Positions 4,629-54,897 of a stretch of DNA of 64,000 bases are shown in pieces (positions within the stretch are counted from its first letter, which is position 1; every line of letters starts with the position of its first letter). This DNA comes from Eledone cirrhosa. Lineage: Eukaryota. Made by a program: the position numbers and the translations under genes. A model generated the notes under the pieces. It saw only the letters and a program-made list of their open reading frames with translations. It was not told the origin of the DNA and ran no database searches. The stretch is taken from positions 43,710,001 to 43,774,000 of the forward strand of contig OZ024756.1 of assembly GCA_964016885.1 (NCBI GenBank). The letters run 5' to 3'.

Positions 4629-4742
4629 GTGGATTAGATGGTGGAACTATTGCTGGTATCATCCTTGGAGTTATCGCATTTATCATACTTGTCGTTCTTT
4701 TAATTTGGTTCTTTGTAATTCGCAAAAAAGGTGATACAAAAG
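4629..4742 (+). CDS. Host gene exon A: transmembrane segment of a type I membrane protein (xGLDGGTIAGIILGVIAFIILVVLLIWFFVIRKKGDTK)
   Basis: Acceptor aacag| at 4628 and donor AAG|gttagt at 4743, phase 1-1. About 24 hydrophobic residues followed by an RKK stop-transfer. Too short for the ORF track. Confidence 0.9.
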
Positions 4743-5590
4743 GTTAGTGATATACAACTTAGTATATTTAGTGATTTAATGTAAATATAACTACAGGTTT
4801 TTAATTAGAAGTCTTGTTGTGAAGAGAAGGAAGTGTAAGTACATCATCGTTTTTATGTTCACTTTTCCAGCTATCATTGTTTCTGTGATGTTTTGTGACA
4901 GTTTTACATCCAGATGCCCTTCCTGATGTCAACTTTTTTAGTTGACACTTTATTACTTTCACAGCAAGGCTTCTAATTAAACAAATGTGGTTATATCTAC
5001 AATAAATATATTTAACATTTTCAAATATACAGTCCTTAACTTATATTTATCTCATTTTATGTAACTTTCCCTTAAACATCCATTTGACCCTATCAGATGG
5101 TATTGATGGTGCCATGAGAAAATGAACTTGGTCATGCTGTGAAGTGGTTGGCTTTAGGAAAGGCAACCGATGATATAAACCCTGCCAAAATGGAAAGTAT
5201 GAGCAAGACACATTTATCTGACCTACCTGTCTAGCCTCAGAATATAACAACCCATTAAAACCATGAAAGAAGGGAAAATAAACATAAAATGGTTGTGATG
5301 ATGATGTTGTCAATAGCTTGACATTATGTATATATAACAATACATTGGACTGGCAGAGTTGTCAATGTTGAACAAAAACTTGACAGTATTTATTCTAGAC
5401 CTTTACAGAAGTCAGCTTTGCCTTTTATCCTTCTGGGGTTAATAAAATAAAATACCAGTAAAGTACTATAATCAATATAATTAATTTTCTCCTCCTAAGA
5501 TTTCTGGCCTTGTGCCTATGTTAGATACCATTATTATATATCACCTAGAACTATTTTGCCTGTAATATTTTTCTTTCACTAATCTTCTAG

Positions 5591-5624
5591 ATACTAAAGA
5601 AAATGCTGGGCCACCACCAAATGA
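5591..5624 (+). CDS. Host gene exon B: 34-nt microexon (DTKENAGPPPN)
   Basis: Pyrimidine tract with a ctaat branch-like site, ttctag| acceptor and |gtgagt donor. Its phase 1-2 exactly reconciles exon A (phase 1) with exon C (phase 2). Confidence 0.8.
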
Positions 5625-6072
5625 GTGAGTATTTCTTTTCTTTTTTACCTTTTTATCTGAGTAACCCTCAAATTTATATTTCCTTCTACTCAGCTATTTC
5701 TCCTCATTTTTGTCTCATTTACTGCTTTTATAACTTTACTTCCTCCCCAACCTTCACACCCTACCACAACTTATTTGTAGTGTGTACTAACTCTGCTTTT
5801 TGTTCACACCTTCCTCAATTACACTCAATAATATCATACCTATGTTATCACTTGATCAGTTAAAAATAGCACATCTTCCCTCCATTTGTCACATTCCTTA
5901 ATCATATCCTCAGTGACCTTCAGTAGTTTGAGATCAGATCCCTCCTCTCAGGTTGTCCTTGGTCTACCCTTAATTAATAGAAATAACTATTAAGCTGATG
6001 TTTGAAACTTAAGTTAACAAAGTCTCTTCCATAAAATTATGATATAAAGTTTTAATATACGTATAAAAACTT

Positions 6073-6253
6073 TACAGTGAGTACTGGGTACATTTTATCC
6101 AGGCACCAGTACAACCCCTTGCAGAGTGGGGTGGGTACATGTTATCCAGGCACCAACACATACACCTTATAAGGTAGGCTGGGTGCATTTTATCGTGGCC
6201 CCAGTGCTACCACCTTACAGGGTGGGCTGGGTGCATTTTATCATGGCACTAGT
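6073..6253. repeat. Degenerate ~50-bp tandem modules resembling RTE 3'UTR internal repeats
   Basis: About four copies of TACAG...GCTGGGTGCATTTTATC.TGGCACC, similar to TTTACAGTGTGGGCTGGGTGCTTTTT..GTGGCACC in RTE-B 3'UTRs. Confidence 0.55.
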
Positions 6254-6456
6254 AAAATTTTAATGATAGGAATTTTGAGTGAAAAATTCTGCTGCTACAT
6301 TAAATATGGCATTCCTTGTAACTGCTTACAATAAGAAGCTATTAGAAATGGCATGAAAGAGGGGATAGGAGAGGATGAAACTATCACATTGTGTAAGAGG
6401 AAGTATTGAATGTTTTGGTAAAAGAAAGTGATATTATTTTCTGATATGTTTTTCAG

Positions 6457-6511
6457 AAAGGACTACGAAGTTCGAGAAAATGCTGTTTATGCAAAACCTG
6501 TACACCAGAAA
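6457..6511 (+). CDS. Host gene exon C (EKDYEVRENAVYAKPVHQK)
   Basis: tttttcag| acceptor and AAA|gtaagt donor; phase 2-0; two tyrosine motifs. Confidence 0.85.
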
Positions 6512-7151
6512 GTAAGTCTATTTCACACACATTTGTTATTTATCTAACATTAATATTAACAACAGCAATAATAATAATATTTTTTTCTACTTTTGGCACA
6601 AGGCCAGCAATTATCCGAGTGCATTACTGGTACTTTATTTTATTGACCCCGTAAGGGAGAAAGGCAAAGTTAACCTGGTGAGATTTGAACTCAATAATAA
6701 TGTTTTTAATAGCCCCACAGGACTCACATTAAGGAGACAATAAAGACAGTACAGTGTGTCTTTTTTTCTTTTTGTATGAAATAGAATATATAACAGATTA
6801 AGAAAATAAATATTTAAAAACAATTCAAACATAACAAATTCCTCAAAGGTCAGGAGACTGAGGGTTACTCATTGAGAAAGCCCACAAAAGCCACAGTCAA
6901 ACTGACCACTAGGGCAAGTCATAATAATAATTATTTCTACTTTAAGCCCAAGGTCAGCAATTTGGGCTCATTGAATTACAGGATTATACCCGAGTCCTTT
7001 ACTCCGTTATTTTACTTGATATATGTATGTATATGTATATATATGAATATATATGTATATGAATATATATGTATATATATGTATATATATATATGAATAT
7101 ATATGTATGTATATGTATATATATATATGTATATATATGTGTATATGTATT

Positions 7152-7533
7152 CATCATCATCATCAACGTTTAACGTCCGTGTTCCACGCTTGCATGGGTT
7201 TGGACGGGGGTTTTCCCTCTTGAGGCAAGAGTGATTGTCTTGCTCGCATAGGACTGTCTGGCAGGTTTTCTACAGTTGGATGCCCTTCCTAACACCAACC
7301 ACATTTACAGTGTGGGTCTGGGAGGTTTTTACCGTGTTGCCTACACGGCCACATTACAGCGTGGACTGTTTTTTTGTCGTGACACCTACACGATCTCATT
7401 TGTTTCGGCCTGGATGGTGTGGCACCAACATAACTTTACGTAGAAGGGGGCGGTGTGGATGGGTGGTGGGACGGGGGTGTATTTTGTTAGAGATGCCTAC
7501 TGACTGTAGTATGTTTTACTTTGTATTTAGGTA
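7152..7533 (-). mobile_element. RTE family A, 3'UTR-only fragment
   Basis: (ATG)n tail at 7152; matches the 3'UTR of other family A copies. Confidence 0.92.
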
Positions 7534-7558
7534 ATATATATATATACATATATATATA

Positions 7559-8517
7559 TAGAAATAGTGGACAGCTTCCGTTACCTGGGCGACAAAATCA
7601 GCAGTGGGGGAGGGTGCTCTGAAAGTACAGTAGATAGAGTCAGAACTGGTTGGAAAAAGTTCAGAGAGCTTATACCACTATTAGCCGCTAAAGGGTTCTC
7701 CCTAAGAATGAAAGGCAGGTTGTATGATGCCTGCATACGAACAGCAATGTTGCATGGCAGTGAGACCTGGGCATTGTGTGCAGAGGATATACGCAGACTA
7801 GAGAGGAACGAAGATTGCATGCTCCGCTGGATGTGTAATAGTAACATACGTGAACGGCAAAGCATATGCGAACTAAGGAAATAATTAGAAATAAGAGTGA
7901 TCAGATGTTGTTTACTCGAGAGAAGGCTACGTTGGTATGGTCAGGTGATGCGCATGAAAGACGACAGCTGTATAACAAAGTGCAGGGCAATAAAGATAGA
8001 CGGTAGCTACGGAGTAGGCAGACCCAGAAAAACCTGGGACGAGCTGATAAATTCTGACCTCACACACTTACACCTCTCCAAGACAATGTCACTGGACCGA
8101 GACCTTTGGCGGTACTCAGTAATAGAGAAGACTCGCCTTTCCTAAATACAAAGTAAAACCTACTACAGCCAGTAGGCATCTCTAACAAAATACACCCCCC
8201 CCCCCCTCACCCCCCCCCCCCCCCCCCCCATCCACACCGCCCCTTTCAATGTAAAGTTATGTTGGTGCCACAACATCCAGGCCGAAACAAATGAGATCGT
8301 GTAGGTGTCACGACAAAAAAACACACAGTCCACGCTGTAATGTGGCCGTGTAGGCAACACTGTAAATGCGGTTGGTGTTAGGAAGGGCATCCATCTGTAG
8401 AAAACCTGCCAGACAGTCCTATGCGAGCAAGACAATCACTCTTGCCTCAAGTGGGAAAACCCCCGTCCAAACCCATGCAAGCGTGGAACACGGACGTTAA
8501 ACGTTGATGATGATGAT
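7559..8517 (+). mobile_element. RTE family A, 5'-truncated copy
   Basis: DSFRYLGD...RLRWYG...GRPRKTW with one internal stop, followed by 3'UTR and (ATG)n tail. Confidence 0.95.
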
Positions 8518-8528
8518 ATATATATATA

Positions 8529-8884
8529 GGAAAAAGTATGACCCCTTTTTTTAAAAGAGAAAAAAGACAGTAGAGCTGAAGCCGTTTCCGTGGCTATTTC
8601 TGGACTAAATTAGAATTTTAGCCTGGTGCTTAAATAGCCTAACTTGTCAAGGGGGTACTTCCTTATATGGAAAGATTGTAGTTGTCAAGAGGATTGGTTA
8701 AAATTTGTTGTAAACACAAATAAGTCTATCATGGCATTTGGTGGGAGGTAGGGGTGGCTGAACTTGCCTGTAAAACAATGGGGGCTGAGTGGAGCCAGTC
8801 AAGCATAGAATAGGTAAATACCCTAAGTATTGAGTACTCTGGTGCGTTATGGTCCATCTGGTTCCTTACCACAATTCCTTTGTT
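8529..8884. mobile_element. Penelope-like pLTR fragment with inverted arrangement and hammerhead fold on the minus strand (8542-8655)
   Basis: Minus strand: CCCC-TTGACAA-GTTAGGCTATTT..AAATAGCCACG-GAAA-C..GTC. Segment 8821-8884 matches 60000-60063 in + orientation while the hammerhead part is inverted relative to that copy. Confidence 0.65.
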
Positions 8885-8916
8885 ATATATATATATATAT
8901 ATGTATGTATATGGTA

Positions 8917-8962
<46 letters not shown>

Positions 8963-9200
8963 AACGAGGGAAGAGGAATACTGCGTGGTTGCACATGGGT
9001 GACATATTATAAAATTAGTCCCTCATCAGTGATTTGCCAACCATCATTGGTATTTCATCGCATTAAAAATCAGATAACTCAGGTTGGTGAGAGCAATAAC
9101 TAAAATAAGCTATTGGGACAAGTGAATCGCGTAAAGCGAGTGAGACAAGTAAACAACAAGAAGGAAAAGCAAACCGAAGGTCGGAAAACAGCAAGCAACA

Positions 9201-9250
<50 letters not shown>

Positions 9251-9279
9251 GGTAATATATATGTATATATATATATATA

Positions 9280-9322
<43 letters not shown>

Positions 9323-9363
9323 GGTAATATATATGTATATATATATATATATATATATGTATG

Positions 9364-10908
9364 TCATCATCATCACCGTTTTACATCCGTTCTTCCACGC
9401 TAGCATGGGTTAGACGGGTTGTCCTGTTGTGGGCAGTGTCTGGTCGGCTGACCTTGCCTTGCTCATACAGGAACTGATCTGGCTTGATTTCTACAGCTGG
9501 ATGCCCTTCCTAACACCAACCTCATTTACAGTGAGTGCTGGGTGTTTTTTCGTGGCGCCTACACGTCCACTTTACAGTGTGGGCTGGGTGGTTTTTGCTG
9601 TGGCACCTCAACGACCACCTTGCAATGGGGGGTGTGGGGGCATATTGTCTATATGCTTCAGCATGTACCCATGGGAGGTCGGGTACTCTGTATTACTGCG
9701 TGACGCCAGAAGTCACGGTCGTCTGTCATTGTCTTTGAGAGGTGTAATTGGGTAAGGTCGGCTTTTATCACCTCATCCCAGGTCATCTTGGGTCTCCCCA
9801 CTCCGCGGTTTCCATCAACTTCTAGTGCTCTGCACCTTTTTATGCAGCTGTCATCCTTCATACGCATCACATGTCCATACCAGCGCAACCGCCTCTCCTG
9901 CACACAGCATTTGATTCCTCTTATGCTCAGTCTCTCTCTCAATTCATTTATGCTTTGTCGTTCACGTATATTACTGTTACACATCCATCGGAGCATGCAG
10001 GCTTCGTTTCTCTCTAATCTACGTAAGTCTTCCACCTTCAGCGCCCAGGTCTCACTACCATGCAACATCGCGGTTCGGATACACGCATCATACAGTCTGC
10101 CTTTCATTCTGAGGGAGAAGCCTTTTGCCGCTAGCAGTGGTAGTAGTTCCCTAAACTTCTTCCATCCCGTTCTTACCCTAGTTATTGTACTTTCTGAACA
10201 CCCACCTCCGCTGCTAATTCGGTCACCTAGGTAGCAGAAGCTGTCTACTGTTTCTACAGGGCCCTCCCAGAGATTGGTGGTACTTGTTTCCTGTGGCTGT
10301 TTGCTGCCTGCTGTCTCAGCACAGCTGCTGCATGTGAATCCTACATTCTTAATTAAGCTTCCTGAGATCCCGCTACATCTCTTGTGTACCCATTGTTTGC
10401 ATTTGGGGCAGAGAATGGAGTTCCTACCTACACCTTTCCTACATACTGAGCAAGGCCATTTCCCTGAGGGGATCTGGGTTCTGTTTTCTCGTCTACTTAC
10501 AAGGACCTTAGTCTTTGTCATGTTGACTTTGAGACCCTTTCTTTCTAGTCCCTGCTTCCAAGTTTGGAATTTATTCTCTAGTTCTACCATAGATTCAGCT
10601 ATGAGTGCGAGGTCATCAGCATACAGGAGTTCCCATGGGCATCCGGTCTTAAACTCCTCCTTTATTGCCTGCAGGACTATGATGAACAGGAGAGGGCTAA
10701 GAACAGAGCCCTGGTGGACCCCAACCTGTACGCTAAATTCCTCGCTATACTCATTGCTAATCCTAACTTTGCTGACTGCTCCTCTATACATGGCTTGTAC
10801 CGCTTTCACAAGCCATTCATCTACTCCTTGTTTTCTAAGAGCCCACCAGATTACAGCACGTGGAACTCTGTCAAAGGCTTTCTCAAGGTCGACAAATGCC
10901 AAGTAGAG
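9364..10908 (-). mobile_element. RTE family B, 5'-truncated copy (RT with PHD insert, stop at 9658)
   Basis: FVDLEKAFD, GVHQGSVLSP, YADD and C4HC3 motif; distinct 3'UTR; (ATG)n tail. The ORF-track N-terminus is microsatellite read-through. Confidence 0.95.
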
Positions 10909-10936
10909 TATATATGTATATGGTAATATATATATG

Positions 10937-10981
<45 letters not shown>

Positions 10982-10988
<7 letters not shown>

Positions 10989-12000
10989 TTAGAAACACAC
11001 AGATACATGCGGACACACACATATATACATGAATGCATCCGCACCCAACTGTGAGTTAAGGGTGCCAACTTCACCGATGTTGCTCAATGAATGACTGGGA
11101 CAGACCAATTCAGTTGAACTAGACTGAACCAGTATCAGAGTTAAAAATACATTATGAAGAGAGAAGAAACATTTAGATATAATTAGTAATAAAATGTATC
11201 ATACCTAAACTGCTCCTAAATTCCTCAACTACGTAGTTTCGTGGCATAAAGAAAAACAATATATCATAAAGATATAGAGTCCTTGCGAGGTCTGCCGACT
11301 TATCAAGAGGATACCTCATTTTACTAGTCTCAAGAACGCGTCTACACGACGTGAGAAAGAATCCCAAAAGGCGGAGGGGGAGATAGTCACGCGATATAAC
11401 GGTTGAGAAACAGAGCTAAGCCTCTTATAACCCCGAAGAAAATACCACGGAGGCGGAGGGGGTATTTATATCGAGGCCGTAGAAGAGGTGGTGAAGAAGG
11501 CGAGAAGTATGAGTAATGGAAGCTTTCCAGCTGTCCCCACACTTCAAAGATTGCTCGACCAGAGGGAGTTATTAACAATATATTTAGAAACACACAGATA
11601 CATGCGGACACACACATATATACATGAATGCATCCGCACCCAACTGTGAGTTAAGGGTGCCAACTTCACCGATGTTGCTCAATGAATGACTGGGACAGAC
11701 CAATTCAGTTGAACTAGACTGAGCCAGTATCAGAGTTAAAAATACATTATGAAGAGAGAAGAAACATTTAGATATAATTAGTAATAAAATGTATCATACC
11801 TAAAGACGCGTTCTTGAGACTAGTAAAATGAGGTATCCTCTTGATAAGTCGGCAGACCTCGCAAGGACTCTATATCTTTATGATATATTGTTTTTGTTTA
11901 TGCCACGAAACTACGTAGTCGAGGAATTTAGGAGCAGTTTAGGTATGATACATTTTATTACTAATTATATCTAAATGTTTCTTCTCTCTTCATAATGTAT
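10982..12000. mobile_element. Penelope-like element remnant: direct repeat plus inverted partial copy
   Basis: 10982-11209 recurs at 11577-11804, and 11805-12000 is the reverse complement of ~11147-11342. This tandem plus inverted pLTR layout with a hammerhead is typical of Penelope-like elements. Confidence 0.75.
11836..11925 (+). ncRNA. Type I hammerhead ribozyme, U3-A8 core variant (second copy on the minus strand at 11222-11311)
   Basis: Stem I TCCTC/GAGGA; core TTGATAA; stem II GTCGGCA..TGCCAC with a large loop; GAAA; palindromic stem III ACTACGTAGT; cleavage triplet GTC (cut after 11920). The minus-strand copy has GTT. Folded by eye. Confidence 0.72.
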
Positions 12001-12026
12001 ATATATATATATATATGTATATGGTA

Positions 12027-12070
<44 letters not shown>

Positions 12071-12444
12071 GGTAATATATGTATCATCATCATCATCATC
12101 ATCATCATCAACGTTTAACGTCCGTGTTCCACGCTTGCATGGGTTTGGACGGGGGTAGTCCCACTTGAGGCAAGAGTGATTGTCTTGCTCGCATAGGACT
12201 GTCTGGCAGGTTTTCTACAGTTGGATGCCCTTCCTAACACCAACCACATTTACAGTGTGGGTCTGGGAGGTTTTTACCGTGTTGCCTACACGGCCACATT
12301 ACAGCGTGGACTGTGTGTTTTTTTGTCGTGACACCTACACGATCTCATTTGTTTCGGCCTGGATGGCGCGGCACCAACATAACTTTACATAGAACGGGGT
12401 GGTGTGGATGGGGTGGGGGTGGTGGCGGGACGGGGTGTATTTTG

Positions 12445-15400
12445 TTAGAGATGCCTACTGGCAAGGCGGGTCTTCTCTGTTACTGAGTACCGCCAAAGGT
12501 CACGGTCCAGTGACATTGTCTTGGAGAGGTGTAAGTGTGTGAGGTCGGAGTTTATCAGCTCATCCCATGTTTTTCTAGGTCTGCCTAATCCGTGGCTACC
12601 GTCTATCTTTATTGCCCTGCACTTTGTAATACAGCTATCGACTTTCATGCGCATCACGTGTCCATACCAACGCAGCCTTCTCTCGAGTAAACAACATCTG
12701 ATCCCTCTTATCTCTAATTTTTTCCTTAGTTCGTTTATGCTTTGCCGTTCACATATATTACTGTTACACATCCAGCGGAGCATGCAAGCTTCGTTCCTCT
12801 CTAGTCTGCGTATATCCTCTGCACACAATGCCCAGGTCTCACTACCATGCAACATTGCTGTTCGTATGCAGGCATCGTACAACCTGCCTTTCATTTTTAG
12901 GGAGAACCCTTTAGCAGCTAATAGTGGTATAAGCTCTCTGAACTTTTTCCAACCAGTTCTGACTCTAGCTACAGTACTTTCAGAGCACCCTCCCCCACTG
13001 CTGATTTTATCGCCCAGGTAACGGAAGCTGTCCACTCTTTCTATAGAACCCTCTGCGCAATTGAAAGAGCTAGTATTTTGTGGGCACTTGCTGCTACTTA
13101 TTGCACCAGAACACCGGCCACATGTAAAGTCTATGTTCTTAGTTAGCTTACCTGTGATCCCACTACATCTTTTATGCACCCATACTTTGCATTTAGGACA
13201 TAAGATGGAGTTTCTACCTACGCCTTTCCTACATACCGAGCACGACCATTTCCCAGAAGGGACCGCCGCCTTGTTTTCTTTCCTACAAACTAGAACTTTG
13301 GTCTTAGCCAGGTTAATTTTAAGTCCTTTTGACTCTAGGCCGTGCTTCCATGTTTGGAATTTCTTCTCTAGCTCGGCCATTGATTCCGCTATGAGTGTCA
13401 GGTCGTCTGCGTATAGGAGTTCCCATGGGCAGCCTGTCTTGAACTCCTCTGTTATAGCCTGAAGGGCAATAATAAATAGTAGGGGGCTGAGAACAGAGCC
13501 CTGATGGACGCCAACTTTTACGCTAAACTCTTCACTATATTCGTTGTTAATTCTAACTTTGCTGACTGTTTCTTTATACATGGCTTGTATAGCCCTCACA
13601 AGCCATTCGTCAACGCCTAGTTTTCTAAGAGCCCACCAGATAATGGAGCGGGGGACTCTGTCGAAGGCTTTCTCCAGGTCGACAAAAGCTAAGTAGAGGG
13701 GTTTACCTTTAGCTAGGTACTTCTCCTGTAGTTGTCGTACTATGAAAAGAGCGTCTGTGGTGCTTTTGCCTGACACAAACCCGAACTGCATTTCATCTAG
13801 ATCAATTCTCTCTCTGATTAGTTGCGCTATTACTTTTTCCGTGACCTTCATGACCTGGTCGATTAATTTAATGCCTCTATAGTTACTCCTATCTAGGGCG
13901 TCTCCTTTACCCTTATAACAGTTAACGATGATGCTGCTATGCCAGTCCTTCGGAACAACCCCATTCTGTACGACTTGGTTAACTATGCGGGTGACCATGG
14001 TGTGTCCCACCGTGCCAGATGCCTTCAGCATCTCAGCAACTATTTCCGAAGGCCCAGCCGCCTTACCAGTCTTCATATCCTTGATTGCCTTACTTATTAT
14101 ACTCCCCTCGACTAACACTGCTGGTCCCTCTATCGGGTCGATATGGGGGAGACTGTCTTTCTCCCATTTATTCTCCTCATTTAGTAGCCTTTCATAGTGA
14201 CACTTCCAAGCTACCTTCTTATCAGTGTCGGTGATGGCAAGTATGCCATCATCGTTAAGTACACACTTCTCCCCGACAATATCACGGTTTTCCTTGACGC
14301 ATTGCCTGGCAATCCTGAACACCTCACGTTTTTGGTCATCGCGTTGTAGAACATGCTTGAACTTTCTTTCCTCAGCTTCCCTTCTTGCTAAGTACACTTC
14401 TCTCCTAGCTTCCCTCCTGGCCACTTGATAGTCTACTCTACTTCCCCCATCCCGCCATACTTTCCAAGCCTGCTTTTTGGCCTTAATTGACCCCTCCACC
14501 CTACTGTTCCACCACCATGTTACTCTCCTCCTGCCTACAGGCCTGCTCCAGCCACAGACTTCGTCTGTCGCCAACAGCAGGTTTGCTTTCAGAAATTCCC
14601 GCTGTCCCTCTATATTGTCCGATTCTAGATGCTCTTCCTTACTGTCGAAAGCATCAAGTAATATGCTTTGAAATTTATTTCTGGCTGTGGGGTCCTTTAG
14701 TTTCCATATTTTCCTCCTGAGGATAGTCCTCTTCTGCTGTCGAGTACGTCTCGTCCTGACTATGAGGTCGCTAATTATCAGTCTATGTTGGGAGGTGCAT
14801 TCTTCATGGGGGAGGGATTTAGTGTTTACAACAGACACTCTGTCACGTCTTCTGGTAAGGATATAATCTACCTGGCTTGTGTGTTCCTCGGATCTATAGG
14901 TGATCAGGTGATTGTCACGTTTTTTGAAGTTAGTGTTACAGATAGTTAGGTTATTTGCATCACAGTATTCCAGGACTCTGGAGCCTTCCTCATTTCTAGT
15001 ACCAAACCCATAGCCTCCATGGATTTCGTCGTAGCCGTCACAATGTTGTCCAACGTGACCATTTAGGTCGCCTGCAATAATTATATAGTCACTGTCAGAT
15101 ATTTGGGAGGTAGTTAGCAACAGTGTCTCATAGAATCTGTCTTTTATAGTGCCGGGCAGTCCGGATTGGGGTGCGTACGCAGATATTACTGTCACCGTAG
15201 TTCTATTGAGGACAAGTCTTATTTTAATTATTCTGTCGTTCACTCTATTTACGTCTATTATCTTATCTGCCCACTTTTCTGCTACCATGATTCCTACTCC
15301 ACCCAGCCCATCGTCGTTTCCCACCCAGAAAAGCTTATAACATCGTTTTTTACCCTCAATGAATCTAGCAGACCCACCCCTCCACCTGGTCTCTTGAATA

Positions 15401-15735: not shown

Positions 15736-15921
15736 GCGATAGTATAGGCCTCTGGCTTATGATTTGGTCCGCGTAATAATAATAATGGTGATGCGTGGGG
15801 GTGGGGGGCTCTGGCTTATAATAATGATGGTGATGCGTGGGGGGGGGGCTCTGGCTTATGATTGGTCCACGTATTAAGTATGGTGGTGTGTGGGGGCGGG
15901 AGGGAGGGGTGTGGGGTAGCT

Positions 15922-16206: not shown

Positions 16207-16237
<31 letters not shown>

Positions 16238-43235: not shown

Positions 43236-43322
43236 TATATATATATATATATAAATATATATATTATATATATTATATATATTATATATATATTTATTAT
43301 ATATATATAAATATATATATAT

Positions 43323-43354
<32 letters not shown>

Positions 43355-43409
43355 ATATATATATAAATATATCACGATAAATTAACGGAGGCATATATAT
43401 ATATGACAT

Positions 43410-43797: not shown

Positions 43798-43870
43798 TAT
43801 GTATATTATATATAAATATATATTATATATATAAATATATATATTATATATATATATATATTATATATAT

Positions 43871-43931
<61 letters not shown>

Positions 43932-43975
43932 AATATATATATTATATATATATATATATTTATAAATATATATAA

Positions 43976-45101
43976 TGTAGGAAAGGAGTAGGCAGAAACT
44001 CCATTTTATGTCCCAAATGCAAAGTATGGGTGCATAAAAGATGTAGTGGGATCACAGGTAAGCTAACTAAGAATATAGACTTTATATGTGACTGGTGCTC
44101 TGGTGCAATAAGTAGCAGCAAGTGCCCACAGAATACTAGCTCATTCCATTGCACAGATGGTGCTATAGAAATAGTGGACACCTTCCGTTACCTGGGTCAC
44201 AAAATCAGCAGTGGGGGAGGGTGCTCTGAAAGTACAGTAGCTAGAGTCGGAACGGAATGGAAAAAGTTCAGAGAGCTTATACCACTATTGGCCGCTAAAG
44301 GGTTCTCTCTTAAAATGAAAGGTAGGCTGTATGATGCCTGCATACGAACAGCAATGTTACATGGCAGTGAGACCTGGGCATTGTGTGCAGAGGATATACG
44401 CAGACTGGAGAGAAACGAAGCTTGCATGCTCCGCTGGATGTGTAATAGTAATATACGTGAACGGCAAAGCATAAACGAACTAAGGGAGAAATTAGGAATA
44501 AGAGGGATCAGATGTTGTTTACTCGAGAGAAGACTACGTTGGTATGGTCACGTGATGCACATGAAAGACAACAGTGGTATAAAAAAGTGCAGGGCGATAA
44601 AAATAGACGGTAGCCACAGAGTAGGCAGACCCAGAAAAACCTGGGACAACTTGATAAATTCCGACCTCACACACTTACACCTCTCCAAGACAATGTCACT
44701 GGACCGAGACCTTTGGCGCTACACAGTCATACAGAAGGCCCGCCTTGCTTAAGTACAATGCGAAACCTACAGTCAGTAGGCACCTCTAACAAAATAACCC
44801 CCCCCCCCCCTAAATGTGAAGTTATGTTGGTACCACAACATCCAGTCCGAAACAAATGAGGTCGTGTAGGTGTCACAACAAAAAAACACACAGTCCACGG
44901 TGTAATGTGGCCGTGTAGGTAACATGGTGAAAACCTCCCAGTCCACACTGTAAACGTGGTTGGTGTTAGGAAGGGCATCCAGCCGTAGAAAACCCGCCAG
45001 ACAGTCCTATATGAGCAGGACAACAAATCTTGCCTCAAGTGGGAAACCTCCCGTCTAAACCCATGCAAGCGTGGAAGATCGACGTTAAACGTTGATGATG
45101 A
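43976..45101 (+). mobile_element. RTE family A (diverged subfamily), 5'-truncated
   Basis: ORF 44030-44752, 3'UTR and tail. Confidence 0.93.
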
Positions 45102-45542
45102 TATAAATATATATAATATATATATATATAAACAATCTTTGTTTCTTGGTTTTAATTTTGTTCCTCTTCAAACAAATTAATCTTTGTTCTCGTAGCTTAA
45201 CTAACATCATGTAATGATTTAGTAGAAATGTCTAAAATCCAGTTTCTTAATCCAAATATTTATCAAACCTTTACTATTGGACAGATAGTTGTGAAAAATC
45301 TTTAAAGTTTTCAATTTTTAATGTGATGCAGTCATAATGCCGTTTTGTATTTTTCAACAATGCCTTTCTAATGTTGTTTCATGTGGTTCAGGATGTTAAG
45401 ACTTAATCATAGCCAAGTAAATTTTGACATAAATCCATCACTTGGTCACGAAAGTACTTTATTTTAAAATAAATTACCAGTAACACACACAGGGGTCAAT
45501 CGACTTTCCCCTCCCCTTCAAATTGCTGGCCTTCTGCCTTAA

Positions 45543-45747
45543 CCCTTTAGCATTTACTATTGTTTTTTTCTAGTAAACACTTTATCTTATATAATTATCT
45601 CACATAATATCAAATCTATGAGGTTTTGATGTTATTTATTTTGAGAACAATACCTCAATGTCAGTATGAGTGGCCAGTTACAGCCGGTTTGAACAGAAAG
45701 AGGTGTGACATTTCTGGTGGGATACGGCCAGTTTGAATGCTAAAGGG
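45543..45747. mobile_element. piggyBac-type MITE with TTAA TSD, inserted in a family-1 SINE tail
   Basis: TTAA|CCCTTTAGCATT...AATGCTAAAGGG|TTAA. Related copies at ~47476-47670, 48006-48194, 50105-50308 and 55660-55843. Confidence 0.85.
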
Positions 45748-45999
45748 TTAAGTAGAAACAATTATTATGTCTAAATCAATTGTGATGAACAAAAAGCTAT
45801 TTTGAGCCTAAATGTTGATGTGGCTGACTTTATCTAAACTCAGTAAAATATGAATATTTGTAAATAAACCTTTGGAGCATCGAGTGGGTTGAAATGCTTA
45901 GAAAATGTAGAAAAATCTCAAACTCAGAAAATAACTGCGAACACAGTGAATTATTATAAATAATAGATTTTAAAAATCAGATAAAATAACTGTTCTTTC

Positions 46000-46390
46000 T
46001 CTTCTTCACCCACTTATTCCTGAAAGGGTTGTGGAGGGCAGATTTCTCAAAAACTTCTTCCAGCAGGTCCTGTCAGAAACAACTGTCTCCAAGTGATCCA
46101 ACTGGATCCCCAGGTGAGACCAGCCAAGCTCATGGATGTTATCCAACCATCTTGTTCGGGGTCTACCTCTGGGTCTCCTGCAGGTTGGTTTTGCTCATAA
46201 AATCTGTCCAGCAATTCTTTCCTGAGACATTCTAACCACATGTCCATAGTATCGGAGCTGTGATCTCTCAATTTGGAGAAATAGCAGCTCTACCTGGAGT
46301 GACTCTCTAATCTCTGGGCAACAGATCTGTCCAGCAATTCTTTCCTGAGACATTTTAACCACATGCCTATAGTATTGAAGCTGTGATCTC
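46000..46390 (-). mobile_element. Old RTE-clade 3' fragment (family D); second copy on + at ~51845-52070
   Basis: Minus strand reads LRYYGHVVRMSQERI..RRPRGRPRTRWLDNI. Confidence 0.75.
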
Positions 46391-47869
46391 CAAAAAATAA
46401 CCCTGTAGATAAAAAAAGAAAGTTGTCAGCAACTGGAATTTGAGAGGTATAATGTTTAATTCTCAGTAGTATCTACTGGCTACTTCTTTTTCTGCCTCTA
46501 GGGTTATTTAAACTGGTTTTCTGAGCTATCGTTTATAGTAATTGACTGTGCTCATAGACAGTTATTTTCTACATTTTTTATTAATAAAATAAGTATTAGT
46601 CAGTGAGAACTGGATTTGCGACCGATAGATAGTATTAGCAATTGGAAAGACCAATGGAAACATTGTTTCCTTGGTCCGATTTGACGAAAGTTGATCATTC
46701 CTAGTCAGTGAATTTCATTTCCAATTAATATGTAGCTTTGGGCTTATGTTCGAAGCTGTTATTATTGTTAGGTGTTTTAGTTCATATCCCACTTTGTCTT
46801 TCATCCTTCTAGGGTCAAATTAAAGTACCAGTCATGTACTGGGTTGATTTAATCAACTTTGCCCTACCCCAGAATTTGCTGGCTTTCTGTCTAAATTAGA
46901 AGGTTATTATTAAGTGGACAGGTAAAGGAAGGATGTGTAACCATGGCATTTGCAAGTCCTCGTTGACTAGTAGGATCAATAGAGTTGATGTCATGACGGT
47001 AACAGGGAAAACATGAGCTGGGAGGAAATTCCAGACTGGTGACTAACACTTTATCATGTTGTTGGGTAGCTAAGTGGAACGATCTGATCATGTGTGTGAT
47101 GTGAAATCCTCTACTTTCAGTTGGGTAGCTAAGTGGAAAGATCTCTCTCTCTCTCTCTCCTATTTATCATGTGTGTCCAATTTCTCATTTGTCCAAGTCC
47201 ATACTCTACTAGGTACTGCTGGAAAGGTCATCCAGTTATAGAAACATTTGAGCCATTCTGATATTGTAGTAAAAGCATGATATACAGAACAGCAACAAAT
47301 ATTGGTGGTTCTCTATTATATGAAGCAGATGATGTGATCTGACAAGTGGTGAAACTCTTAGAACAAATCTGTCCAGCCCATGCCAATATGGAAAAACAGA
47401 TTTAAAATGATAATATAGGATCTGATTTTGAAAATAAAAAAAATAAAATGTTTTTTTTTGTTTTTTTTTGCATGTTAAGCCTTTAGCATTTTACCTTACT
47501 ATATATACTATTGTATTTTTGTGGTAAAGGCTTTATCTTACATAGTTATCTCACATAATATCTAATCTACGAGAGTTTGAAGTTATTTATTTTTAGAACA
47601 ATACCTTAATGTCAGTGTGAATGGCCAGTTATGGCCGGTTTGAACAGAAGGATGTGGGAGAGTTCTGGCTGGATCTCTCTCTCTCTCTCTCCAGATATTC
47701 AACCTCCAATACATGGGGTTCACCACATTTCTCTTTGCAGATGTTTCACATTCAATGCCCTCCCACAACCACACAGCATCAAACTTACATGTGCTTCTTA
47801 AAGTGTCTTTTCACAGCGTGGGTGTTGTCAACAGTGATAACAGCTCTCTCAACTTCTTCCACACTTTTC

Positions 47870-48272
47870 TTAACCCTTTAGATACCAACCCGTCTAAAAC
47901 CACCTCTATTTCTACAAGACAAAAACCAGAAATTTTAAAGGGGCCTTACTTAAATTCAAACCTTCCAACATAAAAGAACATTTTTGTTATGTTACAAATA
48001 TCATCTTAACCCTTATCATTTACCTTACTCTATATTTACTGTTGTAATAATTATCTCACATAATATCTGAGATTTTGATATTTATTTTGAGAACAATACC
48101 TTAACATCAGTATGAGTGGCTGGTTACAGCCAGTTTGAACAGAAAGAGTTGAGAGAATTCTGGCCAGATATGGCTGATTTAAATGCTAAAGGTTTTATAT
48201 AATTACAAGTCTTTATTTATCCATTTAAAAAGACAAAGCATTTCATAAGAAATGTGGTAATGAAAGGGTTAA
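47870..48272. mobile_element. Nested piggyBac-type MITEs (a second nest at ~49999-50439)
   Basis: Outer TTAACCCTTT...AAAGGGTTAA element with an inner MITE starting at an internal TTAA. Confidence 0.65.
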
Positions 48273-48721
48273 TTTAACAGCTTAATTTTCTCTGCAAATT
48301 GTCCTGCCTCCAATAATAGTCACTTCATTTCTAGAAACTATATGCTACATCTTTTGGGCTATAAATATTTATTTTTCACTAATTTTGAATTATAATAATA
48401 TTGTTTGTGCTGCATAAGGGTGTTGTTTTAAGATGGTTGATTCAATCAAAATTCAACCTAGGAAATTAACAGCTCTGCACTTTATAAATGCAGGAGACGC
48501 ATTTGTTGTTATTTTGACCTATATTTTGATCAATATCAATCTATTGGATCAACGTTTTTGTGCTAGAAGGAAGATGTACTCAAATTCTTTTTTTTTTCTT
48601 CTCAAAATGTCCTTGTAAAAGCAGGAGTTGTCTTATACGAGGTGGCGTCTAATACGCCAGCAAAAACGGTTAATACAGTCGTTAATTTAATGTCTTGTTG
48701 TAGCTTTATTATATGATTTAA

Positions 48722-48915
48722 AGGGCAGTGGATTGGCAGTATCAGTGGAGGGTCGGACACCATGCCTTGCAGCATAGAGTTATGGCCCTTTATGGTCTGA
48801 GTTCAAATCCTGTCGAGGTTAACTTTGCCTTTCATCCTTGTGGGGGTCGATGATACAAAGTACCAGTAATACACTGGGATAATTGCTGGCCTTGTGCCAA
48901 AAGTAGAAACAATTG
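48722..48915 (+). mobile_element. Family-1 SINE
   Basis: GTGGATTGGCAG..GGTTAACTTTGCCTTTCATCC..GTCGAT..AGTACCAG..GGCCTTGTGCC. Confidence 0.85.
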
Positions 48916-49598
48916 TGATTTAAATGGATACATTGAATGTGATATAAAGCTAGACAGTTGGTGACATTGCAGGCTACTTAGAGGCATGTGTTGAGCAGAT
49001 GTCATTTACAACTCATCGTTAATATCAACAATCTAAATATATTTATTTTGTGAAAAGAAAGTTTAATTTATATACACATCTGTATTTATACAAATTTCAG
49101 AATATCCCATTGTGTGTGAAAGCAGTGATTCTTTGCTTAAACTTTAATCTGTCATTTTAATAAATATTTGCTCTACGGTTCTTATATATTTGATATATAT
49201 TTATCCTTATGGAGCCCTCTTTGGATTTTAGTCTTCACATTTATTATTATTACTATAATATATATATATATATTTGTGTGTATGTGTCTATATATATATG
49301 TGTGTGTGTGTGTGTTTATATGTATGTGTGTGTGAGAGTGTATATATATATGTGTGTGTATATATATATATGTGTGTGTGTGTGAGAGTGTATATATATG
49401 TGTGTGTATATTGCAACTTTTCATCAGCCACTTGTAGCTTCTTAGCAGAACATTTGTGAAGCGTGGGTGTTGTATAATCACATCAGCCAACATCTTGTTT
49501 GTTTCCTTGTGATGGCTGAGTCACCTCAGACCAATTCAGTACTTAATTGAAGCTACTGACCTCTCAAATGGGCTGCTATTCAAATCTTGCTTACATAT

Positions 49599-49943
49599 GG
49601 GGGCACATGGCTTAGTGGTTAGAGCATTGGCCTTGCAATTGAAAGGTTGTGAGTTCAATTCTCAGACCGGGTGATGTTGTTTCCTTGAGCAAGACACTTT
49701 ATTTCACATTGCTCCAGTTTACTCAGCTGTAGAAATGAGATGATAGGGACTGGGGTCCCTATCATTCCACTGCAAAGTGGTCGTGGAGGTGCCACGGCAA
49801 AAAAGCACCCAGCACTCACTGTAAATGAGGTTGGTGTTAGGAAGGGCATCCAGCTGTAGAAATCAAGCCAGAATCAGTTCCCGTCCCACCCTTGCAAGCA
49901 GGGAAAAGTGGACGTAAAATGAAATGAAAATGATGAAAATGAT
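49599..49943 (+). mobile_element. tRNA-derived CORE-type SINE (family 2) with RTE-derived tail
   Basis: A box TGGCTTAGTGG and B box GTTCAATTC; CCTTGAGCAAGACACTT..CAGTTTACTCAGCTGTAGAAATG resembles the MIR/CORE domain; 3' half matches RTE-B, then RTE-C. Confidence 0.88.
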
Positions 49944-51235
49944 ATATTCCTTTTACAGAGTGTACTGGGTGCATTTCATTATGGCACTAAAATTTATTTT
50001 AACTCTTTTGATATGAAACTGCACTAGGTTTTATGATACTAAAATTTGTTTTAAAATATTTATATTTAAAAATCTTCTATTGTAATATTATGTAAGAACT
50101 TCTGTTAACCCCTTAGCATTTAAACCAGTCATATCGAGCTGCCAGAATTCTCTCCCCTCTTTCTGTTTAAACCAGCCATAACCGGCCACTCATACTGAGA
50201 TTAAGGTATTGTTCTCAAAATAAATATCATCATCAAAATCTCGTAGATTCCATATGTGAGATAAAGCTTTTACCATGAAAATATAATAATGTAAAAGCTC
50301 AAGGGTTATGTTCCAAACACCAAATTTAACAATGTGCGAGTTATATTACTAAATCCCTCCAAATTCTTGATTATTTTCAAAATTATTTGAAAATCATATG
50401 TATTGGATCTCTCTACAAATCTGGTCACAAGAGGGTTAATTTTATCCCCTTTTTTTATTATTTATTCTTGCATTTTGTGTTTGTTTTAATTCTGTTGCTG
50501 AAAGCTCTCTTGTATGTATGCAAAGAGTAATGCCAGACATAACATCGTTAACATTGGCACTGCAAGCAAGATAGCTAGCAGAAGGAAGACATGGGATAAG
50601 ATGTCGATGAGACGGGAAGGGTAGAGCTACCTTATTCGTAAAAAAACAGATGAAAGAAACAAAATCTAAAAATATAAAAAGAAAAGTGACTGTAATTTGC
50701 CAGTAACTTGAGATGAGCTGTTAAAGATTTTCTCTTATTGATCTTGGTACCGTAGGCTCGAACACCTGTGGATCAATAAATATCAAGGTATGCATGTGAT
50801 GGGCATAGGGTGGGTGGGGGAGAGACAGTTGCTACTCAGGGAGTGGAGAAATAATAAACTACTTCTGCACCCCTTCTTCTCAACAACTTAATCAATGCCC
50901 TCTCTCTTTCCCTCTCACCCTCTCTCTTTCTCTCTCTGTCCCTCTTTCTCCCTCTCTCTCTTTCCCCTTCTCTCATATAGTGTATGTGCAACACATCTGT
51001 GTATTAAAATACAAGTAGTCGAGACATTTTTAATAACACACTTGAATAATACAGTTCCGAATGTGAACTATGTCATTGAGAGAGGCCTGTCTGTGAAGTG
51101 GATCACTTTAACCACTAAAGTCACCTAACAACACTACAGTCCAATTTTAGTGTATTTAAATATCTAACTTCACAATTTGTCTAACTGTGAAACGTAGCTT
51201 AGTCTCACATAGATCAACTCCATTGTGTACTCCAG

Positions 51236-51560
51236 TGACTGTGTCTCACTCGTATAGGACTGTTTCTAGCTGGTTTGCTACAGCTGGATGCCCTTTCTAG
51301 CGCCAACCATATATATATATGATATATCATCATCATCATCATAGTTTAACGTCCATCTTCCACGCTAGCATGGGTTAGACAGGAATAGTCCAATTTGAAG
51401 TAAGATTGGTCGGGTGACCATGTCTCACTTGTATAGGACTATCTGGCAGGTTTTCTACGGTTGGATGCCCTTCCTAACACCAACCACATATACAGTATGG
51501 ACTGGGAACTTTTTACCATGTTACCTACACGACCACATTACAGCGTGGATTTTTTTTGTG
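51236..51560 (-). mobile_element. Older RTE-related 3'UTR fragments
   Basis: GGATGCCCTT motifs and a (CAT)n tail at ~51327. Confidence 0.75.
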
Positions 51561-52319
51561 TTTTTTCCCCTTCTTTTTCTCTTCTCTTTCCTTTTTTTAA
51601 AAATATATATATATGCATCATCGTTTAACGTATGTGTATGGTATGTATATGTGTGTGTGTATATATATATACATACACACACGTTTTTAGTGGTAGCATT
51701 CCTGCAACAATTTTCTTTAGACATTGAAAAACATACATGGCATTCCAAGAAATCCCAAACGCTATAAGATAAACAGGATGTAAACTAAACGACTAATTCT
51801 GTCGAGATAACCTAGAGAAATTACCATTTTTTTTTTTTCCAACTGTGATTAGAATGTCTCAGGAAAGATTCACTGGACAGATTTTACAGGTAAAACCAAC
51901 CGGCAGGAGACCCAGGGGTAGACCCCAAACAAGATGGTTGGATAACATCCTTGAGCTTGGCTGGTCTCACTAGGGGGATCCAGCCGGATCAGTTGGAGAC
52001 TGTTGCTCCTGGAAGGAGTATTTTGAGGACTCTGCTCCCACAACTCTCTCAGGAATATATGGGCGAAGAATAAGTGTGCTAGTTGATTTCACCAACATAC
52101 CGATGCTATTCTATTCGTTAGATTTAGAAGCTATAAGATTTAGAAGCTATAAGATTAATGGCTATAAATGTGTTAACACATATAGTGAATACCACCGGAC
52201 ATCAAGATAAATCCGGTTGTCTTTGAAACCTTAGGTTCTACTTGTCCTCCTCTACAGTGCCGAAACCTTGACTAATATTCCTGGTAGATCAAGCAATCTC
52301 ATTGGCACTCAAATGATAT

Positions 52320-52705
52320 CAAGTTTGACTCAGACATACTGTCTGATGCTGCTACGCCGCTTCAAGTTTGACTCAGACATAGTGTCTGATGCTGCTACGC
52401 CGCTTCAAGTTTGACTCAGACATAGTGTCTGATGCTGCTACGCCGCTTCAAGTTTGACTCAGACATAGTGTCTGATGCTGCTACGTCGCTTCAAGTTTGA
52501 CTCAGACATAGTGTCTGATGCTGCCACGCCGCTTCAAGTTTGACTCAGACATAGTGTCTGATGCTGCTACGTTGCTTCAAGTTTGACTCAGACATAGTGT
52601 CTGATGCTGCTACGTCGCTTCAAGTTTGACTCAGACATACTGTCTGATGCTGCTACGCCGCTTCAAGTTTGACTCAGACATAGTGTCTGATGCTGCTACG
52701 TCGCT
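52320..52705. repeat. 43-bp minisatellite, 9 copies, with internal hairpin
   Basis: CAAGTTTGACTCAGACATAGTGTCTGATGCTGCTACG(C/T)CGCTT; TCAGACA-TAG-TGTCTGA stem. Confidence 0.95.
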
Positions 52706-53129
52706 CCTTCTAATCATAGCAAAGACAAACACATGCGTCTCATTCATTTTACTAACCTAATACACTTTAGTAATATGAGATCCATTGATTTCTTGAGAAT
52801 TATCTGTACAGCGTAATCAATTGTAACTCTGCAGCAAAAGTGGAGAGCTGTTGCTAAGTGCAACTGTTGGTTTGATGGAGAGACTGGCAACGGAGATAGC
52901 AGTGAAAGCAGCCAAAATGTGAGGTGTCAGTTTCAATATTACACTGCAAGTTTGAGGACTGAAGTGTTATTAAAATGAGGTCAGGAAGAGTATAGACTTA
53001 CAGACAAACAGCTCACACTATAAAGCACAAGGATTATACTGCTCTGTGTGTGTGTGTGTATTTACTTATGTATATGTGTGCATTTATATATATATGCACA
53101 CATACATACACACACACATACTCTTATAT

Positions 53130-53682
53130 ATCATCATCATCATCACCGTTTTATGTCCGTTCTTCCACGCTAGCATGGGTTAGAAGGGTTGTTCTGTTGT
53201 GGGCAGTGTCCAGTCGGCTGACCTTGTCTTGCTCAAACTGATTCTGGCTTGATTTCTACAGCTGGATGCCCTTCCTAACACCAACCTCATTTACAGTGTG
53301 GGCTGGGTGCTTTTTTGCCGTGACACCTCCACGACCACTTTGCAGTGGGAGAGGGTGGGGCCATATTGTCTATATGGTTCAGCTTCAGCTTGTACCCGTG
53401 GGAAGTCGGGTCTTCTGTATTACTGTGTGACGCCAGAGGTCACGGTCGTGTGTCATCGCCTTTGAGGGGTGCAATTGGGTAAAGTTGGCTTTTATCACCT
53501 CATCCCAGGTCTTCTTGGGTCTCCCCACTCCGCGGCTTCCATCATCTTCTAGTCCTCTGCACCTTTTTATGTAGCTGTCATCCTTCATACGCATCACATG
53601 TCCATACCAACGTAACCTCCTCTCCTGCACACAGCATTTGATTCCTCTTATGCTCAGTCTTTCTCTCAATTTGTTTATGCTT
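53130..53682 (-). mobile_element. RTE family B (diverged) 3' fragment
   Basis: LRERLSIRGIKCCVQERRLRWYGH, 3'UTR and tail. Confidence 0.9.
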
Positions 53683-53862
53683 ATATATATATATGTTTGT
53701 GTGTGTAAATGTATATATATGTGTGTGTGTATGTATGTATATTCAATCATCTTCCTTGGGGTACAAGCCTTTCAAAGCTCCTATGGTTGAATATTTTATG
53801 AGTTATTTTTTTTAATGTTTCATTCTTCAACTCACTGCAGTATATACAATTATTATTATTAT

Positions 53863-54480
53863 TAGGGTGGTGGATTGTCAGTAATTGGTAGAGTGTCGGA
53901 CAACATGCTTTGTGGCATAGTTACGGCCTTTTACATTCTGATTTGAAATCCTACTGCTTTGCCTTTCCTCCTTATGAGGTTAATAAAATAAAGTACCAGT
54001 AATGCACTGGGGTCGATTTAATCAATTTTCCCCTCTCCCTAAAATGCTGGCCTTGTGCCTAAATCAGAAACCATTATTGTTATAGTTATCATCATCATTA
54101 TTTTTAAGGCTTTCCAGCATAGTTACGTTCCTTTACAGTCTGAGTTCAAATCCCGCCAAAGTTAACTTTGCCTTTCATCTTTAAGGGGTCGATAAAATAA
54201 AGTACCAGTAATGTACTGGGTAATTGCTGGCCTTGTGCCAAAAGTAGAAACAATTATTTTTAAGGGGATGGATCGTCAGAACCGGTAGAGCTTTGTGGTA
54301 TTTAGTTACGACTTTCTATGTCCACGCTTCAAATCCTGCCGGGGTTAATTTTACCATTCATTCCTACGGGGTCTTTAAAATAAAGTACCAGTAATGCACT
54401 GGTGGTCGATTTAATTGACTTTCCCCTCTCCTAAAATTGTTGGCCTTGTGCCTAAACCATTATTATTATTATCATTATTA
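53863..54480 (+). mobile_element. Head-to-tail cluster of three family-1 SINEs upstream of the last exon
   Basis: Three core-plus-tail units separated by (ATT/ATC)n. Confidence 0.85.
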
Positions 54481-54576
54481 TATATATTTTTTTATATAAT
54501 TTCTACCTGTAATGTATACCTGTTTTAGCTAGTTTCGGGTGTGATCCAGTATGAATCCTTTTTGGCCTCTTTCCAG

Positions 54577-54897
54577 CTGGGAGAACCTTCGGAGATGCTG
54601 GCTGTAAACTACTATCCAGAAAACGGTAGCAGGCGACATACCCAAGAAACCTCCGGGTTTCTTCCGTCTCGCGGAGATGCCACCCATCAAATGGACGATA
54701 TGGATGGGTCCTACCCCCCTCCACCACCACCACCTCCACCCAAACCTCCACACTCACCTGAGTCGAGCTATCCAGACCAACTTCATTACGCCGAGCTTGA
54801 ACACGCTGTGAGAGATTCGAAGGATCGTCGTTCCAAGGTTATACCCAAACACGAAACACTTTACGCCGAGGTAGAAATTGAAAAGTTGAAAACTTAA
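54577..54897 (+). CDS. Host gene terminal coding exon D: cytoplasmic tail with poly-Pro, ITIM (LHYAEL) and ITSM (TLYAEV)
   Basis: Pyrimidine tract and ttccag| acceptor in phase 0, matching the exon C donor; open to TAA at 54897; GC-richer unique sequence. Linkage to exons A-C across 48 kb is inferred, and extra exons cannot be excluded. Confidence 0.8.
   Translation: MGEPSEMLAVNYYPENGSRRHTQETSGFLPSRGDATHQMDDMDGSYPPPPPPPPPKPPHSPESSYPDQLHYAELEHAVRDSKDRRSKVIPKHETLYAEVEIEKLKT

Follow-up and report, generated by a model that had tools for sequence, protein, structure and literature searches.

A spliced octopod V-set receptor gene with an optional ITIM exon, a candidate inhibitory member of a variable gene cluster

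Does a receptor gene with the tyrosine signals of vertebrate inhibitory receptors lie hidden in an octopus genome, and what might it do there? [quoted passage not shown] We find that the window holds the membrane-and-tail half of a real, spliced octopus type I receptor gene, which is larger than that annotation had drawn it. By analogy with CEACAM1 and its decoys, the gene may be the inhibitory signalling member of a variable cluster whose copies lack its tail, a reading that in our judgement is about evenly balanced.

All four exons have AG/GT ends (4629-4742, 5591-5624, 6457-6511 and 54577-54897; phases 1-1, 1-2, 2-0 and 0-stop) and join, as proposed, into one open frame that runs through the TM helix, KDYEVR, AVYAKP, YP9KPP, LHYAEL and TLYAEV, the last two where they had been placed (Table 1). 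The ectodomain, which had been expected upstream of the window, was found there as V-set and C-type immunoglobulin (Ig) exons supported by fold models and ortholog layout, the latter also giving the order V-C-stalk. An alternative in-frame acceptor at 54529, upstream of the 54577 exon, was dropped since the ortholog alignment begins at 54577, and no hidden coding exons were found in 6512-54576 by an acceptor scan, a by-eye reading of 44900-54250 and alignment with the Argonauta tail. In a search of the 3.0-Gb genome the 54577 exon is single copy, and searches of PDB and Pfam gave no meaningful match to it.

Table 1. Parts of the receptor gene inside and outside the window (plain numbers are window positions; numbers with C17 are contig positions)
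Feature	Position	Strand	Basis
Leader exon, first codons partial	~46 kb before window		exon search
V-set Ig exon	C17:43677837-43678163	+	predicted fold
C-type Ig exon	C17:43702381-43702695	+	ortholog layout
Stalk exon, 42 nt, ends CAG	C17:43709383-43709424	+	fits contig of run X3
End of intron preceding TM exon	1..4628	+	ectodomain exons upstream of window
TM exon, phase 1-1	4629..4742	+	RNA joint 4742/5591; 31/37 residues identical to O. sinensis, O. vulgaris and Argonauta
Juxtamembrane exon, 34 nt, phase 1-2	5591..5624	+	splice ends; joints in contig of run X3
Tail exon, 55 nt (KDYEVR...VYAKP), phase 2-0	6457..6511	+	11/18 identical to O. sinensis
48-kb intron with reverse-transcriptase retroelements, SINE-like repeats and microsatellites	6512..54576	+	flanking exons joined directly in ortholog
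Optional cassette exon, phase 0-0: polyproline run, ITIM, TxYAE half-motif	54577..54870	+	64/98 identical to O. sinensis
ITIM LHYAEL	54781..54798	+	identical in O. sinensis
ITSM-type TLYAE/V across donor 54870/54871	54856..54873	+	motif match; spliced form differs
Read-through extension VEIEKLKT-stop past weak donor GAG/GTAGAA	54871..54897	+	contig of run X3 without joint
Start of last intron when 54871 donor is used	54871..64000	+	continues to last exon beyond window
Further last exon, ends YAPGSSV-stop	C17:43797742-43797906, 23.7 kb past window	+	31/49 identical to O. sinensis, 26/52 to Argonauta

Word-based protein searches with the cassette and C exons returned nothing at an expectation value (E) <=0.01 (63 and 32 candidates), though homologs exist, and a HMMER search with the V exon against 1.84 billion representatives returned 30 proteins at E<=0.001. 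The 18 of these looked up by name comprise 16 uncharacterised or Ig-like octopod proteins and two unrelated repeat proteins, and the other 12 align with the family. Argonauta hians GAB1601880.1 among them led to the orthologs in Octopus sinensis (LOC115221679, isoforms X1-X5; XP_036366772-4 and XP_029647743/4) and Octopus vulgaris (CAI9737726.1), all of whose models are called 'uncharacterized'. The order of parts is alike in these octopods, with TM exon, cassette and last exon conserved to the degree given in Table 1, whereas the ectodomain is only 38-43% identical to those of the two Octopus orthologs and nearer to paralogs in its own genome; none of the ortholog models ends with the read-through (ITSM) form.

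Three sequencing runs contain the cassette exon and none of them is recorded as RNA; run X3 was treated as RNA solely because of its GT..AG joints and its little intron cover, while runs X1 and X2 behave as DNA and may be the source sample. Depth in run X3 is zero in 12 of the 30 bins of window 4400-6800, every one of them intronic, and there is none at 54470-54576. A 444-nt contig of this run matches 4626-6512, carries 211 further letters and has joints 4742/5591 and 5624/6457 at GT..AG, so that two of the three junctions foreseen by the first-pass annotation are present; its 5' overhang (match from 4626) fits the stalk exon with its CAG end. The third junction, 6511/54577, was not seen in this run and has its one source of support in the RefSeq models of O. 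sinensis LOC115221679, and the spliced TM contig is not among the two X3 records that match 54470-54965. Its match includes a G at 6512, where the 54577 exon begins with C and the exon at C17:43797742 with GG, and 211 letters into the latter lie inside a TG repeat, where the contig would break; from these end letters and this length we infer that the contig skips the 54577 exon and joins the further last exon. A second X3 contig spans 54625-54965 without a joint and thus reads through 54871. Depth is 91 in the TM contig and 5.8 in the cassette contig, values that do not allow the isoforms to be ranked and were given no weight.

The exon at 54577 is therefore real but, contrary to what had been assumed, not simply the last one: since it has a phase-0 donor at 54870/54871 and a matching last exon lies downstream of the window, it is an optional cassette. 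O. sinensis isoforms X1-X4 pass directly from the YAK exon into the cassette, leave it at YAE and end in YAPGSAV, and the cassette is skipped in isoform X5 and in the O. vulgaris and Argonauta models. Isoforms X1 and X2 differ by two cassette acceptor uses one codon apart; here there is a single CAG at 54574-54576. The YAPGS[SA]V end and a VY[TS]V motif are kept in the three octopod genomes aligned, and all five O. sinensis isoforms have a YAPGSAV-type end, which by its consensus is a putative class I PDZ-binding end.

Such an end, common to all spliced forms, is typical of junctional adhesion proteins, and it is here that a different reading of the gene enters, namely that of a junctional or neural adhesion molecule with a nectin/JAM/CAR/PZR-like role, in which the tyrosines would serve routine SHP2 or adaptor scaffolding instead of inhibiting immune responses, and the fast V domain would reflect exploitation for pathogen entry. 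The spliced X3 contig, which fits the skip form, agrees with this, and the Atlas look-alikes include a fasciclin-3-like cluster at 0.92, as a lead only. However, a species-specific, homogenised cluster with more replacement than synonymous change, as described below, would presumably be unusual for conserved adhesion molecules. To our minds an adhesion role is unlikely, although it overlaps with an inhibitory one because CEACAM1 is both adhesive and inhibitory.

What kind of ectodomain does the tail belong to? The model of the gene's own V exon has a mean confidence (pLDDT) of 90.3 and is predicted to match an antibody V domain with Z 11.9, a root-mean-square deviation (rmsd) of 2.0 Å and 97 aligned residues; in the O. 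sinensis ortholog pLDDT is 84-97 in ten-residue blocks across most of the two domains, and the first of these is predicted to match antibody and T-cell receptor (TCR) V domains with Z 13.6, rmsd 1.8 Å and 100 aligned residues. As modelled, the first domain is a V-set Ig domain that includes C' and C'' strands. Conserved across the family are the B- and F-strand cysteines and a D-x-x-x-Y/F-x-C motif, to which three extra cysteines are added; D123 and Y127 are invariant and C129 near-invariant in one family alignment, the gene described here having Phe for the Tyr. The C-strand Trp of the 'pin' is absent from the family alignments, its place being taken by Leu, Phe or another hydrophobic residue. 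No Pfam family matches the V exon at E<=1, and only one of 28 family proteins matches an Ig model at E<=0.001, just under its cut-off. Antibody and TCR V domains make up most of the top 50 fold matches, PD-1, Siglec-15 and CD8 being tied lower; CEACAM, nectin and Alr chains are not among these 50, which excludes nothing. Siglecs bind sialic acid through a conserved F-strand Arg, unlike the octopod family, where no conserved Arg on or after the F strand was found in two family alignments. The ectodomain homodimer prediction scored 0.19, the mark being 0.32.

The gene does not stand alone. Genome searches found 17 V matches among 20 candidates and 16 C matches among 27, every one of them within C17 42.56-43.70 Mb and on the minus strand except those of the receptor gene, which is on the plus strand at the cluster's end. 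The cluster DNA examined (C17 42.52-42.78 and 43.20-43.80 Mb, with the 420 kb between them left out) contains 11 paralog leader exons, nine of them at least 97% identical to the gene's own, as well as an additional C exon and, for the TM region, 11 paralog exons and a partial copy. Within this DNA the receptor gene alone has the YAK, cassette and last exons, none of the paralogs having a copy of the 55-nt tail exon. Four of the 11 paralog TM exons continue in frame to tail exons, four are frameshifted to short tails and three, putative GPI-anchored decoys, stop right after the hydrophobic stretch. No ITIM is present in three predicted paralog last exons; the homologous frame of a fourth, tentative one contains a single loose SxYxxI match that is not shared. 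One of the 11 TM copies has a charged residue, a Lys early in a stop-terminated hydrophobic stretch.

The copies have several further features. Leader exon and 3' intron flank are 97-100% identical in nine of 11 paralogs, even where V is only ~50% identical, which suggests conversion or strong constraint at the 5' end. The inverted neighbour (C17:43658576-43640000, minus) reads V-C-stalk-V-C-TM, with no leader exon in the examined DNA, and several other copies in C-V order imply fused multi-domain genes. V exons near C17:43258.9 kb and 43425.2 kb have a short 5' internal duplication repeating GSSARINI, which may shift the acceptor. Among the octopod family proteins, P0007, P0013, P0015, P0023 and P0027 have a tailless hydrophobic end, similar to that of glycosylphosphatidylinositol (GPI)-anchored proteins, and the V-C unit occurs five times in O. 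vulgaris P0001, joined by Thr-rich linkers.

Replacement changes (dN) exceed synonymous ones (dS) in this cluster. For the ten V exons at least 69% identical to that of the receptor gene (itself included; seven more distant or broken ones were left out), dN is 0.120 and dS 0.059, dN exceeding dS in all 45 pairs; a codon bootstrap puts the difference in proportions (pN-pS) at 0.016-0.092. The pairs are not independent and rest on ~74 synonymous sites. Ten paralog C exons give dN 0.109 and dS 0.044 (dN>dS in 42 of 45 pairs). Within V, the BC loop together with the C-C'-C''-F-G part varies more than the remainder (0.30 vs 0.11; 0 of 20,000 permutations), in a comparison that ignores burial. Eight V copies have no substitution in 51 downstream intron columns, and their upstream flanks, simple repeats included, differ by 0.19. 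Over a 7.9-kb block that takes in the C and stalk exons, identity to the inverted neighbour is 96-99.8%; in O. vulgaris, CAI9737727.1, numbered directly after CAI9737726.1, agrees with it in 100 of 102 C residues, and between the genome studied here and O. vulgaris 43 of 100 C residues agree. This C-domain likeness within genomes may stem from recurrent conversion or from independent recent duplications. In trees, ectodomains group by genome with moderate support, the V and C exons of the genome studied here at 88/92 and 91/85 (broken exons left out). Ectodomains are kept alike within species in the fashion of paired receptors, recent duplication being indistinguishable from conversion, and a cluster that evolves like a recognition family is supported.

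Divergence between close species is confined to the V domain: in V the O. sinensis and O. vulgaris orthologs agree at 65 of 104 residues, against 100 of 102 in C, 38 of 38 in TM and 100% in the two tail exons compared, and the O. sinensis V domain is identical in 92 of 102 residues to the neighbouring O. vulgaris model. A V domain that differs by 38% while the rest is 98-100% identical brings to mind a receptor for self/non-self or individual identity, in which, as with Hydractinia Alr, a polymorphic V domain would bind matching alleles in trans and the ITIM would report 'self'. Octopuses, however, do not fuse as colonies. Alr is, like the octopod family, an invertebrate cluster of unusual V-set receptors largely missed by Pfam, with alternative splicing and some ITIMs (10.1101/2022.03.04.482883). 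[quoted passage not shown] We regard an identity receptor as very unlikely.

How do the tail motifs bear on an inhibitory role? LHYAEL matches the ITIM definition (I/L/V/S)xYxx(L/V) (PMC2832619), as had been claimed, and is identical in O. sinensis isoforms X1-X4, that is, in two species; DYEV and VYAKP, which had also been listed as tyrosine motifs, fit neither the ITIM nor the ITSM consensus. The tyrosines of LHYAEL and TLYAEV are 25 residues apart, and DQLHYAEL, TxYAE and this spacing are kept in O. sinensis inside an exon that is 65% identical. As an ITSM, TLYAEV exists on read-through, seen in one X3 contig, and is lost on splicing because the GT of the donor (GTA) encodes its Val: the spliced second site is TLYAE-G here and TPYAE-T in O. 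sinensis, so conservation in the ortholog extends to ITIM and spacing while the second site of the annotated inclusion isoforms differs. The C-terminal SH2 domain of SHP2 prefers (T/V/I/y)XpY(A/s/t)X(I/V/L), requires a hydrophobic residue three positions after the phosphotyrosine (pY+3) and favours one at pY+5 (PMC8113834); read-through TLYAEVEI conforms to this consensus, whereas spliced TLYAEGRQ departs from it. At pY+1 the ITIM carries Ala, which favours SHP1-type docking (PMC8631942). A candidate partner is encoded on C24, where an SHP2-like SH2 exon has PTPN11 as its best PDB matches (E 6e-34 to a tandem-SH2 chain).

Not all of this speaks for inhibition. Besides the limits on the substitution counts and the PDZ-type end noted above, the following weigh against it: the 6511/54577 junction is missing from the RNA-like run; the read-through is one contig from one sample that begins 48 nt into the exon and terminates within a microsatellite, and for these reasons may be retained-intron RNA; all four annotated O. 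sinensis inclusion isoforms splice off the ITSM Val; the ITIM has at pY+5 His, unfavourable for SHP2 (PMC8113834), where O. sinensis has Leu; cassette conservation rests on two species because the Argonauta and O. vulgaris models are skip forms; paralog C domains also show dN>dS, unlike what a simple arms race at the V tip predicts; and no ITAM is present in the 11 paralog TM exons or three predicted last exons of the examined cluster DNA.

Some of these points suit a further reading, which overlaps with the others and sees the ITSM, and perhaps the ITIM, as a by-product: read-through RNA would be unspliced precursor, TxYAE/V an accident of the donor GT, and the tyrosines would serve trafficking or other SH2 adaptors. 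Any phase-0 donor yields Val on read-through, none of the five O. sinensis models ends at the read-through stop, and in an exon 65% conserved overall a conserved hexamer is unremarkable. Among 100,000 shuffles of the 143-residue read-through tail, 14.7% contain an ITIM, 2.4% an ITSM and 0.03% an ITIM followed by an ITSM 15-35 residues away; this last figure makes the pair look more exceptional than it is, as the donor GT dictates the closing Val. Set against this reading, run X3 reads through the donor even though intronic stretches have zero depth at both places described above; Thr(-2) and Ala(+1) are conserved, as is the 25-residue spacing; and Ile at pY+5 is unforced by the donor, with a stop following within nine codons. 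We consider a by-product somewhat unlikely.

Returning to an inhibitory receptor, its action may be envisaged as follows. Ligand binding by the V domain would lead to phosphorylation of LHYAEL and TLYAE(V), onto which the SHP2 ortholog would dock with its tandem SH2 domains, damping activation. A short form (S), with the cassette skipped, would have no ITIM and end in YAPGSSV; a long form (L), with the cassette spliced on, would have the ITIM only, its second site losing the pY+3 Val; and a third (T), with the cassette read through, would lack the YAPGSSV end and carry ITIM and ITSM 25 residues apart. Diversification of the V domain is probably due to a pathogen or non-self ligand that targets it, and neighbouring copies may act as decoys or gene-conversion donors. 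A 'don't react' receptor whose brake is tunable by RNA processing is likely; calling it an 'inhibitory immune receptor' would be a reading of its sequence.

Among known systems, the gene would work most like CEACAM1 with its cluster, although by the features tested it is no CEACAM, Siglec or Alr. The CEA cluster has one ITIM+ITSM receptor with a V-like tip, differential splicing and species-specific clusters, and it also has GPI forms that arise when the TM exon acquires a frameshift or stop, conversion between genes lying in opposite orientations and replacements on the CC'C''FG face (PMC2832619, PMC5112662). In contrast to CEACAM, the octopus V domain has five conserved cysteines, its near-identical block covers the C exon and stalk rather than V, its switch is a donor inside the ITSM, and an ITAM partner was not found in the examined cluster DNA. 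The V exon search of 1.84 billion representatives found no CEACAM homology, and the likeness would be convergence. PD-1, BTLA and the CD33-related Siglecs share a V-set tip and, with the read-through form, an ITIM followed by TxYxxV, in PD-1 at a spacing of 25 (Y223/Y248; PMC7078208), and BTLA and Siglec-9 share Ala at pY+1 (PMC8631942); no sequence relationship to PD-1, BTLA or CD33-related Siglecs was found, and the octopus motifs, unlike theirs, are optional. Protostome precedents for ITIM signalling are Drosophila Draper-II, with an isoform-specific ITIM bound by Corkscrew (PMC9008705), and the oyster Ig receptor CgNCAM1, with two ITIMs and binding to CgSHIP2 (PMC11841013); their ectodomains differ from that of the octopus receptor, and the available parts of these reports describe no variable cluster.

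The 48-kb intron that separates the tail exons is rich in repeats. A near-complete long interspersed nuclear element (LINE) at 12445-15756 on the minus strand has an open frame of 1103 codons with endonuclease, reverse transcriptase and PHD finger, and truncated LINE copies lie at 9658-11055, 36666-38471 and 39454-41862. Two unrelated 43-bp minisatellites occupy 22320-22661 and 52319-52705 (8 and 9 copies). An open frame (L009:4780-5388) has no Pfam hit at E<=1e-5, and we take it to resemble the GIY-YIG endonuclease of a Penelope-type element.

In the literature covered, which leaves out most subscription journals, we found no description of this gene or of a cephalopod ITIM receptor cluster and nothing on LOC115221679. 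The words octopus, cephalopod and squid are missing from the main text of a 2025 review of the invertebrate Ig superfamily (PMC11999971), as is ITIM from PMC13428168, and the four LOC identifiers are absent from the readable supplements searched of the octopus brain atlas (PMC9712504). The protein models are already public, though unnamed; added here are the gene as it stands in this genome, the logic of its cassette, the placing of a donor within the ITSM and the finding that closely related species diverge in V alone.

A stronger version of the inhibitory reading, which we think improbable as it stands, would be an octopod checkpoint that arose independently of vertebrates: an SHP2-recruiting V-set receptor with a homogenised and positively selected decoy array, in which a splice donor in the ITSM sets how strong the brake is. 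If this were true, the choice between splicing and read-through would swap the pY+3 residue and trade a second SH2 site for a PDZ-type end. If the inhibitory reading holds, the locus would supply a defined receptor, its candidate phosphatase, a set of three isoforms and a binding face that varies, so that self/non-self recognition in cephalopods, or a pathogen driving the variation, becomes testable. It would also mean that spiralians have converged on the vertebrate design of an inhibitory receptor plus decoys, with an unusual one-residue splice switch.

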